A stretch of 64,000 nucleotides of DNA, from NCBI GenBank assembly GCA_000182565.2, contig KQ257470.1; one strand, given 5' to 3'. The notes beneath the pieces were generated by a model. It did no database searches and had not been told where the DNA came from. It saw nothing but the letters and a program-made list of their open reading frames with translations. This stretch comes from Spizellomyces punctatus DAOM BR117 (Eukaryota). The position numbers were made by a program, and so were the translations under genes. Positions within the stretch are counted from its first letter, which is position 1; every line of letters begins with the position of its first letter. Of this stretch, positions 56,175-64,000 are shown in pieces.

Positions 56175-58297
56175 CTAATCTGATTCGTCACCACTGCTCA
56201 TGGCGGCGCTACTCGTCCGCACCTCTTCAAACCCTCCTACCCACACTTCATAAGTTTTTGGATCACAGTACTTGCCAACGACCGTTTCCTGGATTTGTTG
56301 TGCGTAGTCAAAGTCCTGCTTAGCTGCTGGTACCTCTGATAACGGTCTCATTCCCCATTCTCGTAAGCCAGCGGCGGTGACAGGGGCAACAGAAGAATTA
56401 CGGCCCACTTTGCGAACATTTGCCCATATCCACCGTAACGGTGACGGGCGTAGCGGGAGTCCTTCCGGGGAAAGAACAAGGTTTGTGAAATCGTGATGCA
56501 CTTGGTCAAGGACTATTTTCCACGCAAACCCTCGCTTTCGTGTTTGGTGACCAATTGCAAGTACATTGTCCAAGTCGCCCGTTTCCATGTTCCAATCAGC
56601 CAGCATAACGGAATAAATCGTCCGCTTTCCGCTACTTTCTTCCCAGGTACTTCCACCAGGTGTATGGGCCGACGCACTTCGCTTTGGTCGCAACCATTTG
56701 ACGACAAGATATCTCCGACAGATCGGCCTCATCTCTTTATCTTCACCATACACCATCTGTCGCATTTCCTCTCGCACATGCTCGATATTTCCATTGAGCT
56801 CATCCCACGTTTTACAATTAGGTATGTGCTCCATAATTTTCGGTTGTGCATGTGCATGCAACATAATATCATCGACGGAGGCAAGGATAGCTGAGATCAA
56901 GTCTTGCGAGGGCGGTTTTGAAAGCGCCCGGGAATTTGGCATATGCGCGGGGTTAGAAATCAACCGTATGTCGCTGTGCACTTCAGAGTGCACACCAAAC
57001 CGTTCGTGTGACAAGGAGCACGTAAGACGATTAGCGGCAAAGAGTTGTGTTGGCCTCCATTTGCCTGTTCGATACTTTCCTCCACCGCCGCAATCACTAT
57101 TTACAAAATGCTATCAGAATCAAAAAGAGACCAATGATTGGTAGCTGTATGTAAAATACCTGCATAGAGAATACTTGTTGTGGCACTACAATCGGATATC
57201 GGCCAGGTGACATCAGCAAAGATCCATCATGTGCAAACGTTGAAAATAAGCGACTTACGGCGATGCAAACTACCTCCCACCGCAAACCCGGGTTCCCCCG
57301 TCGATCCCGCGCTTATCATCGCACTGTGTACTCCTCCCACTCCAGCCTTTCTTTTGCAAACATCGCAGCCGAGAGATTTGTCGCTAGGTCCCAATAGTGA
57401 CTCCTTTCGCTTCTTGTATGGCGGCTCGGACGAGGTGCTCTGCTTCGACGCTCCTCCTTTTTCCCGTGCAGCACACGATGTACACCGTATATTAACGACA
57501 TAAGGCTCAGCAAGCTGTTCTTCCGTCCCATGCAAATACAAATGCGCTACAGGGGTCGAACAATCCCGGCATGTGGCATCAGTCTCCTTCATCTCACGTT
57601 TGCGGCGTCTTCGGCCATTATTTGTTTGCGCTGTTTGCGGTATGTCACTCTTGCTGGACGGCAATGATGGTGACGACTGCCCTATGCTAGCATACGGGGA
57701 AGAGGACGAGGATGCATTTTCCAATGCATAGTCTGCCCAGTTCTCGTCAACCAAATTCCCCTCAGCATCCTGGACGTTCAGATCGTCCTCCATCATTGGT
57801 GTGAAGAGATCTCTGGTGAAAGACATTTGTCCAACCCAACCATCCAAAAAATTGTTGTGTGAGAGTTCCGGGGTGTCCGATACAGAAATGGAATTTAATG
57901 GCACATCCGATGCATAGGAGGTTGGACTATGGGAGTATTGGCCAATGTCAATGGGAAGGTGGACCGATGCTCCCCATGACTCAACGTTCGGCACGGGAGC
58001 AGAAGGTTCGGGAGGTGTTATGGGCAAGAGGTGCAATGGCTGGGCCATAGAATGTGTACCAGTTGAATGCCCTGACGTCGCCACATTCCCCAACCCACTT
58101 GCATCAGAAGCTAGCGCCCTTTTCTCTCGTATTATCTCCAGCTCCAGTTCTTTGGCTTTTCTTTCTTCCTCTTTTGCCGCCTTCTCCGCTTCCTTTGCCA
58201 GTCTATGCTCTTGCAATATGGAGAGAATGAGCTGAAGAGAGGTTTCCGACGCATCGGAGGGTATCCTGTCGATAAGAGCTGTGAACGGGTCCGCCAT
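56175..58297 (-). CDS. Uncharacterised fungal Cys-rich (multi-CxxC) protein; apparent +1 frameshift at ~57276-57278
   Basis: CRDC, CTSC, CDVC, then EVVCIA|CHNKYSLCS|DCGGGGKYRTGKWRP...TCSLSHER across two GT-AG introns. A continuous frame requires removing one base. Confidence 0.65.
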
Positions 58298-59304
58298 TCT
58301 CTAGTGGTCTTTCTACCACCCAACGTCCGGTCTATCGTCATATGCCCAACCAAAACACTCCAATTCCAGCGAGAAATATTTTGGGCCGTTTCGGAATTCG
58401 ATGTGGAGTAGCACTAGAACCACACTTGGTAGGCTTTGGAAGCGTCGAACCATAGATTGGAATGCTTAAATCTGCCGCTGGCTTGATCGTCCGTTCCATT
58501 GGACTTGACCGTTCTTTACCTCTTGAGATTTACATCGGTGTGCAGTTGGCATAATTGAAGAAACTAAAATCCAAACAGTTCTCGCTCAAGCAGAAAGACA
58601 AACTGTATAGAATAATTTATTACATTCTGTGAAGGCTCTTCCGGAGGCCAGCCAAGGTCAGTCCATGGCGAATCTCATCTGACCATAGTGTAAATAGACA
58701 TATTTCTCGATTGCAGAATGCTCTCATGGAGGATGGTAAGTTAATATCAAATGGATATTTATGATTTGTATATGTCAGATGTGAAGCTGTATATTTTGGA
58801 GGCCGGTAAGCTGACACACTCCGAGTTAACCGCGGCTGTTCCAAATCGCTGTCGCCATGATGCTTTTAGATGGGTATGTGACGGAGAACATAGCGGCACT
58901 GTTATCTTATGAAATGACACAGACATGTAAATCCTCTCTACGTATCGCATGTCGAGTGTCGGCGTCCTGTTTCTAATATCCAACAACTACCAGAAACATT
59001 GTTAAGATTTCCTATTTGTCGTCAGCGAACAGCAGTTTACTGTAACAGAGGCTGATACCGCTGAGGATGGAACAGTAGCGGCTAAGTGGGAGAAGCACCT
59101 AGATATTTTTTTGATGCAGAGAGACTAACTATGCAATCAGAAAGAGATAATTAGAAGAAGAAAAGCCTGATACCGCATAAAGGAGGTATCTTTGTTCGTA
59201 GTTATAAGCAGCTAGTAGTTTGCAACGATTAAGTCGCATGCAGATTTAGGATATCATGAAATGTTTTCAATATCCATTCCATAATTCTCCTTCGAACATT
59301 TATA

Positions 59305-59332
59305 GTGCGGAGCCGATGGGTATTGGCACTAG
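59305..59332 (+). repeat. Left terminal inverted repeat of the Fanzor element (GTGCGGAGCCGATGGGTATTGGCACTAG), preceded by TATA
   Basis: The reverse complement CTAGTGCCAATACCCATCGGCTCCGCAC-TA matches, from recall, the 3' end of the SpuFz1 omegaRNA scaffold/right TIR with one mismatch. Confidence 0.75.
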
Positions 59333-59405
59333 TACATATTCCAACCAATTTAATCATAATTTTACTCGATTTAGACTCATGAACTATGGTTTGATCCAAA
59401 AATCC

Positions 59406-59412
59406 TATATAA
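59406..59412 (+). promoter_or_regulatory. TATA box upstream of the Fanzor ORF
   Basis: TATATAA about 52 bp before ATG 59464, inside the element. Confidence 0.5.
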
Positions 59413-59463
59413 GTTGTCGTCGCCCATTTTCCCAGGCTTTCATCTTTTTCTACAGATATCATC

Positions 59464-60393
59464 ATGCCACCAAAGAAGAAGCAAAAGCTTGAAAAACTCG
59501 ACAAACCCACTTTACATACCTGCAACAAGACTTCCTTTGCAAAAGCTTTCCTGCCAAACTATCACCAACGGCTTCGAGATTACATCGCCATCATCCATCA
59601 ACTTGCTGATCATGCTTCCCACGCTCTCAAATTCTACATCCTATCTGCACCAACCTTTCCCACAGTAAATGAAGATACAATCGAAGCCATACTGTATCTT
59701 CTCAACAAGGGGGAGGCTTGGCAACCAAGAATGGATGCAAAGAAGGCGATACGCGGATGCTTGTTGCCATATGTTCAATGGTACTGCCAAATTGTCGGCT
59801 TCTTTCACCCAAATCTACGAGGCGAGCAGCAGTCAATCAATTACCTGACAGCGAGTATGATGACAAACCTGAAGGTCAACGTTCAAGAACATTTCATGAT
59901 GATGCTGCTCCGATATATCAATCTGCGGCTTGACGTGAAGGGACGGAAAGGGCAACTGCCACCGAAAAGCGATGCGCGAAAAGCTTTCTTTACTCGGCTA
60001 CGCTATTTAAAGTCAGTTTTTCTTTTTGATATCGTGCCCGAGTCGCTGGATGACTTGACTGCTGAAGAGAGTGAGCTTCTAGAAGAGATCTGGACACTTA
60101 ACCTGCCATTTCCTGATCAAGACAAGCTGCTTGCCTACCTCATTGCCATTGACGCGATGTCCTTCTTTCCTGCATACTGTTGGTTGTCAAGCCTATATGA
60201 AAAGCATGGATTTCGATGGTTCAGTGCCATACCTCTGCCCCGCTCACTCATCCAAAGCCACATTCGCATCGACTCCAAAATCCTGTACCAGCATATCCTT
60301 TGCATCACGCAGCGAGAAGCAGAAGCTGTAGAGAAGGTCGATTTATGGTTGCACGTCTGTAATCTACGTACCAAAGCTTTTCGGTCTCGCTGA
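59464..60393 (+). pseudogene. Fz1: Fanzor1 RNA-guided endonuclease (TnpB/Cas12-related), truncated 309-aa N-terminal WED/REC half
   Basis: MPPKKKQKLE (NLS-like), LHTCNKTSFAKAFLPN, IIHQLADHASHALKFYIL, MMTNLKVNVQEHF, FSAIPL.RSLIQSHIRID and TKAFRSR closely match the N-terminal half of Spizellomyces SpuFz1 as recalled. The stop codon is formed at the junction with the repeat array. Confidence 0.87.
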
Positions 60394-60572
60394 TAATATG
60401 ATATACCCGGCTTATAATATGATATACCCGGCTTATAATATGATATACCCGGCTTATAATATGATATACCCGGCTTATAATATGATATACCCGGCTTATA
60501 ATATGATATACCCGGCTTATAATATGATATACCTGGCTTATAATATGATATACCCGGCTTATAATATGATAT
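60393..60572. repeat. Tandem array, 21-bp unit ATAATATGATATACCCGGCTT, 8 full copies plus a partial copy
   Basis: Directly visible; copy 7 has CCTGG instead of CCCGG; no spacers. Confidence 0.97.
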
Positions 60573-60589
60573 TAATAAGCCGTATTGAA

Positions 60590-60657
60590 GTGTTTGCCCA
60601 ATGCATTGGAGTGTTTCAAAGTGTTTCAAAGTGTTTCGAGTCTTCCAAGGTGTTTGT
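60590..60657. repeat. Short GTGTTT(C/G) iterated repeats, including a 10-bp GTGTTTCAAA tandem
   Basis: GTGTTTGCC, GTGTTTCAAA x2, GTGTTTCGAG and GTGTTTGTCC just inside the array. Confidence 0.75.
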
Positions 60658-60899
60658 CCAAGTCCGGGACTATTGATGAAGGGATGTGCGCATCTACGCC
60701 GAAAATTTTCTCTGACATACACGTAAAGTTTTACGCATCTAATATTTCGCATGTCCAAACTCCACCTAATTCAAAGTCAACACTGGTTCTAACTTGACAT
60801 TCGCTTCTTCTCAAGACTCCATGGTTCGTGTTCCCTTGGGCGGTTCATTTGGTGATTTTACTTGAGCAAATTCTTGCCACTAGGTTCAAATGCCACACT

Positions 60900-61446
60900 T
60901 TATGAAATCACTTTATCTTGGGACTCCATCTCTCCACCTTCCTTTACTGATGGTACTCGGGAGACCTTCAGTCTCAACACTTTTCGTTGTTTGCGGTAGA
61001 TTGTGGAAATCTCCATCACTTGGTCTTCTGTATATCCTGCCTCCATCAGCCCCTGCTTGTCTTTTGCTTAAACAAGCCCCATTGCTTCTCCTCGGCGAAA
61101 GATGTTACATACACAGCTGCCTCTTGTGGAGATAAGATCGTCCTCACAATATGCCCGCCAGCAACGTAGCAGTTGGATTCAATGTACGGTTGAGCGCTTA
61201 AGTGCTAATACGTAACGTTGATTGCAACACTCCGAAGCCAGACCCTGCATGCATCTCAGCTGTGGTGATTCAACAGTCNNNNNNNNNNNNNNNNNNNNNN
61301 NNNNNNNNNNNNNNNNNNNNNNNNNNNNNNNNNNNNNNNNNNNNNNNNNNNNNNNNNNNNNNNNNNNNNNNNNNNNNNGTGAGTTGGTAGAACCTCTTCA
61401 TCTCATTTAGCTCTTCTTCACTTGCTCGCCTCATCATTTTCTCCAT
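60900..61446 (-). pseudogene. Possible degraded ORF of unknown function spanning an assembly gap
   Basis: Begins MEKMMRRASEEELNEMKRFYQL before the gap. After it, YIESNCYVAGGHIVRT...WGLFKQK and DKQGLMEAGYTEDQVMEISTIYRKQRK lie in different frames. Confidence 0.3.
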
Positions 61447-61729
61447 TGTTAATTGCAGCTGTATTCGAATGTTGTATATGGAATCGTTTTTGAAAAGAAG
61501 GCTTCGAGCTGGGGAGACCGGCGACCCTCTTTTATAAACGGAAAAGGAACTCTCCCATCTTATCGATATGATGGCCTTCTTTTATGTCCCATCTGATCCA
61601 TATGTTTCCTTATGTTTCCTTTGAAGAATAATGATTCTATCGATACTTTCCCTCATATTTCATGTGACCTTTCTATCGACAGTAACCTTTCACAAAAAAG
61701 GGAAACTAATGGAGATGCTGGAAAAAATC

Positions 61730-62059
61730 CTAGAACTAGGGCTTTTTCACAACATGCCCATTTTCGCTCACTGCTCCACAAAAACAGCTCTAGAATCCTA
61801 GCCCTTTTTTTGCCCGGTCTTCTCTACTTTTCAAAAAATTTTCATTTTTTTTTTTCAAAATTGAAATTTGATTCCATTTGTGAGATTTGACCCGGGAAAA
61901 TGGGCTAGAATGGCTAGGATTCTTGTCTTTTGCTATGTAGGGTATTTTATACTACTAATAAATAAATATATATATTCTTATATGTTAAATTATACTACAT
62001 ACATGTAGAGAGAACAAAACCTAGCCATCGAAAAACTAGGATGAGCTAGGATGTACTAG
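61730..62059. promoter_or_regulatory. Origin-like non-coding region: 10 CTAG iterons, 12-bp perfect inverted repeat, AT-rich cores
   Basis: AGAATCCTAGCC (61792-61803) and GGCTAGGATTCT (61912-61923) flank a T/A-rich core; CTAGGA repeated at 10-bp spacing at 62036, 62046 and 62056. Confidence 0.5.
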
Positions 62060-62143
62060 GAATTCTTTTTCCTTTCACTGCTTTAGCTTCTTACTCCTAC
62101 TTTTTCTACCATCTCTACCTTCAATTGTTCTCGCTTATACCCC

Positions 62144-62808
62144 CTAGCGCCTTTTGTAATGTTTTATGCAGTAGATTTTCCATGCTGGCTCTGTTAAGTG
62201 GATTCTTTTCTTGCAGCCTTCCTGTGCACAATCTCTGGTTTTCCTCCGACTTGTCCTTGCAGAACACGTGGTGGTAATAGCCATCCCTTTGCTTTTCTGC
62301 CAGTCTGGTAGACACATTGTCTTCCATGTACGCTCTTTTTCATCGGAACANNNNNNNNNNNNNNNNNNNNNNNNNNNNNNNNNNNNNNNNNNNNNNNNNN
62401 NNNNNNNNNNNNNNNNNNNNNNNNNNNNNNNNNNNNNNNNNNNNNNNNNNTCTGGGAATGACAAAAATCACATACTTCATTGTTGAGCGCACCTTCTTTC
62501 TTATACTGTTTTTCACACAGTAAACATTTCCGCATCGTATTGACAAGTTCCTGTCTCATCTTGGCTGCCCTTTCCACCTCTTCATCTGGGAAAAACCGCT
62601 TTATACAGCAGTTGCCAATGACAAGTACCTTTCCGGTATAGATGTTCTGGACAAAACAGTTCTCTTTGATGGGATGTGTACAAAGGCAGCGGTTTTCCTT
62701 GTCTAAGCGAAAACTCTCAACCTTCCATTCCCGAATGGCTTCCTCAAATAAATCGCTCAAAGATTCATTCGGTAGTTCCCTTGTGAATGTATTGAAATAT
62801 GATGTCAT
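62144..62808 (-). CDS. Cys-rich Zn-binding protein of large-DNA-virus type, spans assembly gap
   Basis: EAIREW...RCLCTHPIKENCFVQN..TGKVLVIGNCCIKRF, CLLC and CDFC; after the gap, CAQEGCKKRI...WKIYCIKHYKRR*. Confidence 0.6.
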
Positions 62809-62848
62809 GCGTGTTCAATATACTTACCACTGTTTATTGTCTATATCT

Positions 62849-63055
62849 TTAAATGGCCGTTTTGTCTGTTTTTGGTACCCTACTTATTGTTATAAAATCA
62901 TGCCACAAGGTTCTCTTGTCGCCCATGACCAACTTTCTAACCGTTAGGTGACATAATGATAGGTCTTTGGCGAGTCTCCTTATCGACGGTGTGCGGATCG
63001 AGGTCTCATTACCGAATCGGTTCACCGTGGCAATGTAGTCAAATTTCGAATGCAT
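62849..63055 (-). CDS. Small basic protein with HTH-like segment
   Basis: 68 aa containing SIRRLAKDLSLCHLTVRKLV; tightly packed with the Zn-protein gene and divergent from Prim-Pol. Confidence 0.4.
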   Translation of the reverse strand: MHSKFDYIATVNRFGNETSIRTPSIRRLAKDLSLCHLTVRKLVMGDKRTLWHDFITISRVPKTDKTAI

Positions 63056-63205
63056 TAGTGGTATGTTGTTTTACTATACTAAGAGGCATATCATTTAAGT
63101 AGTGTCTTTTTTTTCATCGCATTTGTCGAGTTTTTCTGGAACAAAAAAAAGCTACTTAAATACATACGTCCGTGTGTTATACAGATATATCACCAAATTC
63201 AAACC

Positions 63206-64000
63206 ATGCCACAAACACTGCTTTTCCAAACTGCCAAGAAAATGAAGCATGCTAATCCTTCATTCAATCCTATCCCCGCATCTGTCGAGGACAAACGTCC
63301 TTTAGGCAAGTGGAGTGGTACTTCATACCTGTTCGAAAGAGATTTTCCTAAACGTGAACAATGGCAACCGGATTGCAATCTCGGTTTACTGGTATCTGAT
63401 GACTATATTGTCGTGGATGTTGACGCAAAGCCACCCGCGCAACGATCCAAAAGTAAAATCTATAGTGAAGCCCTCGGAACAGTCGACTTTGCAGAACTGG
63501 TTGAGCAAAACGAACCTTTGCCCACTACACTCTCACTCACCACACCCAGTGGAGGAAAACACTTTTACTTTTCTTTGAGTGGTAAGGATGGCGAAAGTAT
63601 CTTGAAAAATTGGACAGCATGCATGACGCGGGAAGACGGCTCTGTTATCGCAGTCGACATTCAGACAAAAGGCGGTTACGTAATGGTTCCACCCAGCAAG
63701 AAGGGATGTCAACGCTATGAATGGGACACAAAGGATGGTTTCAAGGTGCCGATGGCTCCTTTGCCAAACTGGATTCTTAAGAACATTCTTGATGCACATG
63801 GCAAACATCCTCAACATTTTGAGGCTCAGGAGTTTACAGAATCGCCGCACTTAAACAATGAAGTCAGCAATGAAGACATTGAAATGTTCAAAAAAAGCGA
63901 GTTCTGGAAAGACTGTTTCTCCATCTCTTCAAGACCAGATCACAACAATCTGTACATTATCACAGCAAGTGTGCCCTATGATTGCTCAATTTGCAACAGA
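63206..64000 (+). CDS. Bifunctional DNA primase/polymerase (Prim-Pol, AEP superfamily), 3'-partial
   Basis: Hand translation from ATG 63206 is open for 265 codons to the window end: DKRPLGKW, CNLGLLV..YIVVDVD, TTPSGGKHFYF, VDIQTKGGYVMVPPS, YEW and APLPNW, then CSIC at the edge. Confidence 0.88.
   Translation, partial: MPQTLLFQTAKKMKHANPSFNPIPASVEDKRPLGKWSGTSYLFERDFPKREQWQPDCNLGLLVSDDYIVVDVDAKPPAQRSKSKIYSEALGTVDFAELVEQNEPLPTTLSLTTPSGGKHFYFSLSGKDGESILKNWTACMTREDGSVIAVDIQTKGGYVMVPPSKKGCQRYEWDTKDGFKVPMAPLPNWILKNILDAHGKHPQHFEAQEFTESPHLNNEVSNEDIEMFKKSEFWKDCFSISSRPDHNNLYIITASVPYDCSICNR

Follow-up and report, generated by a model that had tools for sequence, protein, structure and literature searches.

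A truncated Fanzor1 transposon abutting a probable virus-like element with a primase-helicase gene in Spizellomyces punctatus

The chytrid fungus Spizellomyces punctatus is the source of SPu-1, a Fanzor1 transposon of ~2.1 kb that is described as carrying a single 633-aa open reading frame (ORF), 33-bp terminal inverted repeats and a guide RNA at its 3' end (PMC3627910, PMC10432273). The account in PMC10432273 gives 42 Fanzor (Fz) loci for this genome, 19 full-length and 23 partial, together with 134 'ghost' loci. One polinton-like virus (PLV) integrated in the S. punctatus genome was reported by Bellas and Sommaruga in 2021 (PMC7805220), where a helicase-primase together with a tyrosine recombinase is called typical of PLVs, and where the PLVs integrated in oomycetes are described as having terminal inverted repeats and duplications of 5-7 bp. 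Presumed virus regions are also reported from many chytrid genomes (bioRxiv 10.64898/2026.06.19.733378), and giant-virus remnants are stated to occur in zoosporic fungi (PMC13533422). Here we describe a locus at the right end of a 64,000-nt stretch of contig KQ257470.1 of S. punctatus DAOM BR117 (assembly GCA_000182565.2; the whole stretch is referred to below as the window), in which the left half of an SPu-1-type Fanzor is joined to a 21-bp tandem array, followed at some distance by a gene for a primase of the Prim-Pol type (PrimPol). The reading that we favor, and that we consider probable, is that the Fanzor relic abuts a virus-like element that became endogenous and is most likely one of the polinton-like viruses known from chytrids. 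The features on which this reading depends are the following, in window coordinates.

59303-59335, plus strand: left inverted repeat of an SPu-1-type Fanzor1 transposon (boundary from reads; the 33-bp length is that given in PMC3627910)
59464-60393, plus strand: truncated Fanzor1 ORF of 309 codons, about the first half of SpuFz1 (assigned by homology; the stop codon arises at the junction)
60389-60572, no strand: tandem array of 8.8 copies of a 21-bp unit (Tandem Repeats Finder, 98% matches)
63206-64000, plus strand: start of the PrimPol gene, first 265 codons, open at the window end (PF09250 and relatives); a part with D5_N and a superfamily 3 (SF3) helicase is expected from the relatives

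Judged by its homology, the product of the 309-codon ORF is the N-terminal half of a SpuFz1-family Fanzor1. A phmmer search of the Protein Data Bank (PDB) matched two distinct sequences in all, SpuFz1 (8gkh_P, E 3.1e-160, query residues 2-309 on residues 396-711 of the 1032-residue maltose-binding protein fusion) and the Fanzor1 of Parasitella parasitica (E 1.1e-7). When HMMER was run over 1.84 billion representatives, 132 proteins were found at E<=0.001 (79 at <=1e-10 and 27 at <=1e-30), the closest of which (P0014, 605 aa) shares 86% identity with the ORF, residues 1-309 aligning with residues 1-309, and itself matches SpuFz1 and the Parasitella Fanzor1 in the PDB over its full length. These two matches place in the window ORF the N-terminal REC/WED region homologous to that of SpuFz1. 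Many of the relatives are 598-660 aa long; their first halves align with the 309-aa ORF, and they run on directly past its last residues. Neither Pfam nor PHROGs recognized the ORF, and Pfam applied to 10 of the relatives yielded a sub-threshold Cas12f1-like TNB match in one, spurious weak matches in two and nothing in the other seven. Because Pfam gave no support for the relatives, the Fanzor identity rests on the PDB match.

The left end of the transposon was located with one contig set (X5) and three raw-read chromatin immunoprecipitation (ChIP) libraries (X9, X10 and X11; read length 38-51 nt), all carrying the same species label and aligned to positions 57000-64000 at 92% likeness. In all four runs reads lose their match just before 59302/59303 (e.g. 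212 reads in X11 and 112 in X10), the unmatched letters before that point agree poorly with one another (0.42-0.81), and the depth jumps from 59340. The poor agreement of these loose ends indicates that 59303 is the edge of a multi-copy element with differing flanks. The SPu-1/SpuFz1-type left portion extends from 59303 to 60392 (1,090 bp), which by sequence comparison would represent ~52% of the ~2.1-kb element described in PMC3627910. Mean depth over 59340-60275, strands summed, was ~262 (X9), 570 (X10) and 302 (X11), as against ~4.0, 20 and 2.6, respectively, over the PrimPol region (62148-64000), that is, 28-116 times higher across the three libraries, although depth is only a rough guide to copy number because these are ChIP libraries. 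The Fanzor part is clearly present in tens of copies, in keeping with the counts for S. punctatus in PMC10432273 (42 Fz loci and 134 'ghost' loci). Between 59332 and 59338, many reads that agree with the ~30 nt at the left edge of the Fanzor switch to one common other sequence (184 reads in X11, agreement 0.95), which suggests a second abundant family sharing the inverted repeat, perhaps that of the 'ghost' Spu-1 loci already published.

The break in the Fanzor copy falls at codon 310 of ~635, and what should follow was not found. A tblastn search of the 64-kb window with three full-length relatives matched only 59464-60390, with no sign of the RuvC/Zn-finger (TNB) half, so that the 3' half lies neither within the 3.6 kb downstream of the break nor elsewhere in the window. 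The guide (omega) RNA region is likewise absent from the 64 kb, and an Rfam scan of 58500-64000 gave no matches at E up to 1. As for the right terminal inverted repeat, the left-end 17-mer occurs only once in the window on either strand with up to three mismatches and has no reverse-complement match, and the window holds no inverted repeat of 40 nt or longer. Since both the RuvC/Zn-finger half and the guide region are missing, this copy is a dead relic, unable to cut DNA or to supply a guide. Compared with SPu-1 and SpuFz1, the locus therefore shares the left end at a repeat-family boundary, the leader and the first 309 codons, which align with SpuFz1 residues 2-317, but differs in that the relic measures only 1,090 bp and has no RuvC/Zn-finger half, guide region or right inverted repeat within the window. 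These results agree with a preliminary description of this DNA, made from its letters, which had recognized a Fanzor left end and an open 309-aa Fanzor ORF and had stated that the nuclease and the guide were gone.

The same description had the ORF stopping where the 21-bp array begins, and the break can be placed to the base. The first three bases of the 184-bp array (GCT) are common to the Fanzor sequence and are the only overlap between the two sides; in the first array unit the fourth base, the last one of Fanzor origin, departs from the consensus, and the TGA stop (60391-60393) is composed of a Fanzor TG followed by the first base specific to the array. The ORF end is thus a by-product of the join, given that its stop codon is made of two Fanzor bases and one array base. 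One contig of the X5 set agrees with the window as far as 60392, beyond which its letters differ and read like the residues that come next in a Fanzor relative; homology to intact Fanzor copies therefore ends at 60392/60393. At the inner edge of the array, 30 of 61 X10 reads have one additional A following 60572. A 37-nt array segment was found in neither IMG/VR nor the JGI metagenome scan (no occurrences in either). Derivation of the array unit from the Fanzor sequence at the break was considered and dropped, the resemblance being loose and by eye.

The second partner of the locus is the PrimPol gene, which the preliminary description had also named. PF09250 matches its product with E 1.3e-19 and 71.7 bits against a cut-off of 22.8 (residues 20-189 on positions 9-158 of the 158-position profile), and five PHROG primase families match as well. 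The motifs are intact: D71 and D73 of the DVD motif, which are invariant among 9 sequences, SGGKH and VDI. Among proteins of 465-2000 aa, 13 relatives were found at E<=0.001, 12 of which cover 95-100% of the query at 50-66% identity; the ORF is colinear with them and the alignment runs without interruption. These relatives are 481-849 aa long, the full-length forms 778-849 aa, and the eight whose organism is named by the source are all from chytrids, namely Rhizophlyctis rosea (three), Phlyctochytrium arcticum (two, both in one assembly), Nowakowskiella, Gaertneriomyces and Borealophlyctis. Proteins of 145-464 aa contributed another four, including some from Geranomyces and Thoreauomyces. No relative in either size range is identical to the window protein.

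The full-length chytrid relatives combine Prim-Pol and D5_N with a sub-threshold DUF5906 match, and a profile of the chytrid family found, among 8 PDB sequences, as its best match the C962R protein of African swine fever virus (ASFV; E 1.1e-29), with poxvirus D5/E5 at ~1e-11. The likeness to these viral proteins lies in the D5_N and SF3 helicase of the chytrid family and in the order primase, D5_N, helicase. The difference from C962R lies in the primase, which in the window is of the Pfam Prim-Pol (PF09250) type common to phages and plasmids, whereas the AEP_C962R type is found in the closest locus in IMG/VR. An alignment search of that database confirmed 196 of 357 candidate stretches, from which 80 loci were kept; the closest (L001, a 20-kb contig) is only 24% identical to the window element's family over the helicase part. 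With 10 of its 18 ORFs of at least 120 aa scanned, L001 encodes a 917-aa AEP_C962R-PriCT_2-D5_N-DUF5906 primase-helicase, a DUF2738 protein and a sub-threshold A32-like ATPase, and it is probably a polinton-like virus or a virophage-size genome.

With integrated PLVs the locus has in common the host group, a compact AT-rich gene module, a primase-helicase and a possible repeat-bearing terminus, the S. punctatus PLV being compared here by its description in PMC7805220. It differs from them in that no capsid, minor capsid, packaging ATPase or integrase is found among the ORFs of 60573-64000, the window stopping at primase codon 265. As for Polintons/Mavericks, the replication gene seen here is a primase-helicase, whereas their protein-primed PolB and rve integrase do not occur in the 3.4 kb seen. 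In the literature searched, with supplementary tables not covered, no published account was found of the Fanzor/array junction or, as such, of the primase-helicase family of chytrids. The sources cited above already record truncated Fanzor loci as well as a PLV from a chytrid, so that the juxtaposition of a Fanzor relic and a virus-like element represents a further instance and not a new kind; nor is the reversed nesting remarkable in itself, a PLV and 23 partial Fanzor loci having been described for S. punctatus.

Between the array and the PrimPol gene, and partly overlapping the inner end of the array, the following further features were recorded.

60555-60582, no strand: imperfect palindrome (hairpin) at the inner array end, 12-bp stem with one bulge; the z-score of the whole 131-nt stretch is only -1.82
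60589-60656, plus strand: five direct RGTGTTTS motifs, i.e. 5 of the 12 window matches within 68 bp (repeat finder: 10-bp repeat, 4.7 copies)
60657-62120, no strand: AT-rich stretch without a convincing ORF, containing gap 1; represented by several variant copies among the reads labeled as this species
62121-62808, minus strand: cysteine-rich ORF split by gap 2, N-terminal part 62452-62808, probable C-terminal part 62121-62339
62849-63055, minus strand: 68-aa ORF, no family supported (HTH_36, E 0.19)
63056-63205, no strand: AT-rich divergent intergenic spacer of 150 bp, with a 23-nt inverted repeat (63093-63115 / 63139-63161, 83% complementary)

The window total of 12 RGTGTTTS matches is not above chance; their cluster may represent putative iteron-like protein-binding sites, and the array, the hairpin and the direct motifs together would suit a terminus or origin region. 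A 17-nt inverted copy of the motif-cluster sequence (60603-60619 / 61222-61238, 82% complementary) lies ~600 nt away, just before gap 1. No ORF in 60573-62120 has family support. The flank exists in several variant copies, as indicated by the extra A, by variant joints in the reads (60757 to 60791, 60820 to 60902 and 60915 to 60872) and by an X5 contig that links 60872-61059 to 61379-61574 with 171 other letters in place of 61060-61378. Because this contig joins both sides of gap 1, order and orientation across the gap are supported, at least in a paralogue. A short minus-strand frame with a Met start (61379-61446) runs into gap 1 and could begin a further small gene hidden by the gap, and the AT-rich 61700-62060 holds several short direct and inverted repeats around CTAG words (e.g. 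61792-61806/61909-61923 and 61910-61921/62017-62028).

Two of the small ORFs had been assigned in the preliminary description to a virus-type Zn protein (62452-62808, minus strand) and an HTH-like protein (62849-63055, minus strand), and neither assignment was borne out. The former is cysteine-rich and has no family or homologue match: the best Pfam E values were 0.098 and 0.5, no homologue was obtained among proteins of 65-209 aa (one candidate), and none of 23 pattern matches in IMG/VR was confirmed. AlphaFold2 modeled its N-terminal part poorly (mean predicted local distance difference test score 52.1), and in the ESM Atlas its first match (0.92) fell in a viral cluster with Preplasmiviricota commonest, a weak lead, since the recognition score of 2136 is under the threshold of 2300. 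For the 68-aa ORF, HTH_36 reached 12 bits against a cut-off of 25. In tblastn against the 80 IMG/VR loci none of the small window ORFs matched, and the PrimPol query alone did, at 24-28% identity.

To the left of the Fanzor, ordinary host genes fill the window from 1 to ~58.3 kb, with Pfam matches to a FANCM-type helicase, REV1, thiamine-phosphate synthase, a pentatricopeptide repeat (PPR) protein, an aspartyl protease and a flavin reductase, and the relic starts at ~59.3 kb. The DNA past the array is AT-richer, as had been stated (GC 0.414 for 60573-64000 versus 0.478 for 1-59302), and with its virus-type primase it has a foreign look, whereas the statement that it lacks introns had as its basis a single gene fragment. 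The window contains three runs of exactly 100 N, at 1120-1219, 61279-61378 (gap 1) and 62351-62450 (gap 2); the first of them, near the window start, falls within an open frame. The ChIP profiles of the two sides are unlike: in X9 and X11 the peaks lie in the intergenic/promoter stretch (57.7-58.9 kb), where X10 shows depletion, and X10 in turn has a relative enrichment across the Fanzor relic and the flank of the array (57700-58870 compared with 59340-62150). From this contrast, the right side may lie in a different chromatin state. Inclusion of 58300-59302 in the element was rejected, since this segment borders ordinary host genes and its ChIP profile is sharply unlike that of the right side.

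In this arrangement, host genes run to ~59.3 kb and are followed by the left 1,090 bp of an SPu-1/SpuFz1-type element (inverted repeat, leader and codons 1-309), which is fused through a 3-bp overlap to the 21-bp array and then to the hairpin and the direct-motif cluster. A compact, AT-rich, apparently intron-less module lies ~2.6 kb beyond these, with small minus-strand ORFs facing a plus-strand gene of the PrimPol-D5 type. The primase-helicase would start replication of the element, whose terminus or origin would be provided by the array and motif region. The truncation of the Fanzor, the array, the identity of the PrimPol and the spread of its family among chytrids are shown by the data, whereas we infer the assignment of the array to the PrimPol element, the viral or mobile nature of this element and the origin of the join. 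The clean break, the 3 shared bp, the 309 open codons and the two versions of the inner edge fit an insertion into the Fanzor copy, and other routes fit too, so that we give insertion and a later deletion or illegitimate recombination about equal chances.

Several observations weigh against this interpretation. A capsid, a packaging ATPase, an integrase and a second terminus are not seen in 60573-64000, within a window that stops at primase codon 265, and the small ORFs have no homologues in the searches described above for the cysteine-rich ORF (proteins of 65-209 aa, IMG/VR). None of 17 pattern matches of the window PrimPol in IMG/VR was confirmed, the PrimPol alignment reached at most 29% identity among the 80 loci kept there, and a JGI metagenome scan with the primase-family alignment gave 343 pattern matches of which none was confirmed. 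The chytrid primase family could consist of domesticated host genes. As regards the physical link, two 100-N gaps separate the array from the genes, and reads of 38-51 nt are too short for a 184-bp array, no read or contig being shown that crosses the join between Fanzor and flank. Finally, depth in the PrimPol region is below the roughly expected mean in all three ChIP libraries, and over 60510-60977 it is 3.9 (X9), 4.7 (X10) and 5.7 (X11) times that of 62148-64000, with similar values for 61446-61679; from this higher ChIP depth, the array flank could be a separate repeat family.

Among the more specific accounts, the first is a special case of the favored reading and was the central claim of the preliminary description: a true bisection, in which a PrimPol element with array-bearing termini entered an intact SPu-1, so that the missing Fanzor half and a target-site duplication would lie at its far end. 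Besides the break clean at one base with only 3 bp shared and the 309 upstream codons still open, the extra A after 60572 is in agreement with it, since it implies at least two inner-edge versions of the array, as two termini of one element would give, and the terminal inverted repeats and 5-7 bp duplications described for oomycete PLVs (PMC7805220) offer a precedent. However, the far end lies beyond the window, the Fanzor 3' half is found neither in the 3.6 kb downstream nor elsewhere in the window, and the variant flank copies could equally be unrelated paralogues. We regard a true bisection as possible, yet on the unlikely side.

Doubtful, although it accounts for the depth profile, is the proposal that the array and 1-1.7 kb of flank constitute a separate repeat family, e.g. 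a minisatellite-bearing non-autonomous element, so that the PrimPol element is not capped by the array. In all three raw-read runs the depth steps down from ~4-6 times (60510-60977 and 61446-61679) through ~2 times (61680-62147) to that of 62148-64000, and the variant joints, the X5 contig with its 171 substituted letters for 61060-61378 and the lack of any ORF with a family in 60573-62120 point the same way. The same steps in depth would, however, result from a long terminal repeat of one element together with a few degraded copies; ChIP depth is not copy number, and an array followed by a hairpin and direct motifs is a layout that suits a terminus or an origin.

That unrelated regions were joined by the assembly, at the array or across the N gaps, appears quite unlikely. 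A 184-bp array is a classic place for a false join, the more so when the Fanzor part exists in tens of copies, two N gaps lie downstream and no read or contig is shown to cross the array. Nevertheless, the assembly is gap-free over 59303-61278, and the X5 contig linking 60872-61059 with 61379-61574 speaks for the order and orientation of the two sides of gap 1, at least in a paralogous copy. The reads without the majority variant at 60353 (4 of 314 in X9, 28 of 532 in X10 and 3 of 318 in X11) roughly fit the low downstream depth, a weak argument, as sequencing error gives similar numbers.

We consider it very improbable that the PrimPol-helicase and its neighbors are domesticated, vertically inherited chytrid genes: relatives 50-68% identical are spread over several chytrid orders, in some cases on contigs 305-908 kb long, and the catalytic motifs are kept, but two species have at least two copies per genome, many entries are partial, the architecture is of the phage/virus type, the DNA is AT-rich with short intergenic spacing and an adjoining transposon relic, and all named matches are chytrids. 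Hardly any weight is given to the view that the PrimPol-helicase and the 21-bp array form a chytrid-specific, capsid-less, self-replicating mobile non-PLV element with array termini that by preference inserts into, or recombines with, SPu-1 Fanzor transposons, so that the two families would interact.

Taken alone, a truncated transposon lying next to a fragment of an endogenous virus is nothing unusual in a eukaryotic genome. Provided that the join is real, the locus that we interpret as a Fanzor relic abutting a virus-like element provides a dated landmark, at which such an element arrived at, or was rearranged with, a Fanzor copy that was still open in frame. The primase-helicase family spans several chytrid orders, and the elements that carry it are barely described. 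Mapping of complete copies could reveal whether fungal genomes harbor PLVs that have a replication module of their own, and whether encounters between these viruses and RNA-guided Fanzor transposons are more frequent than chance would give.

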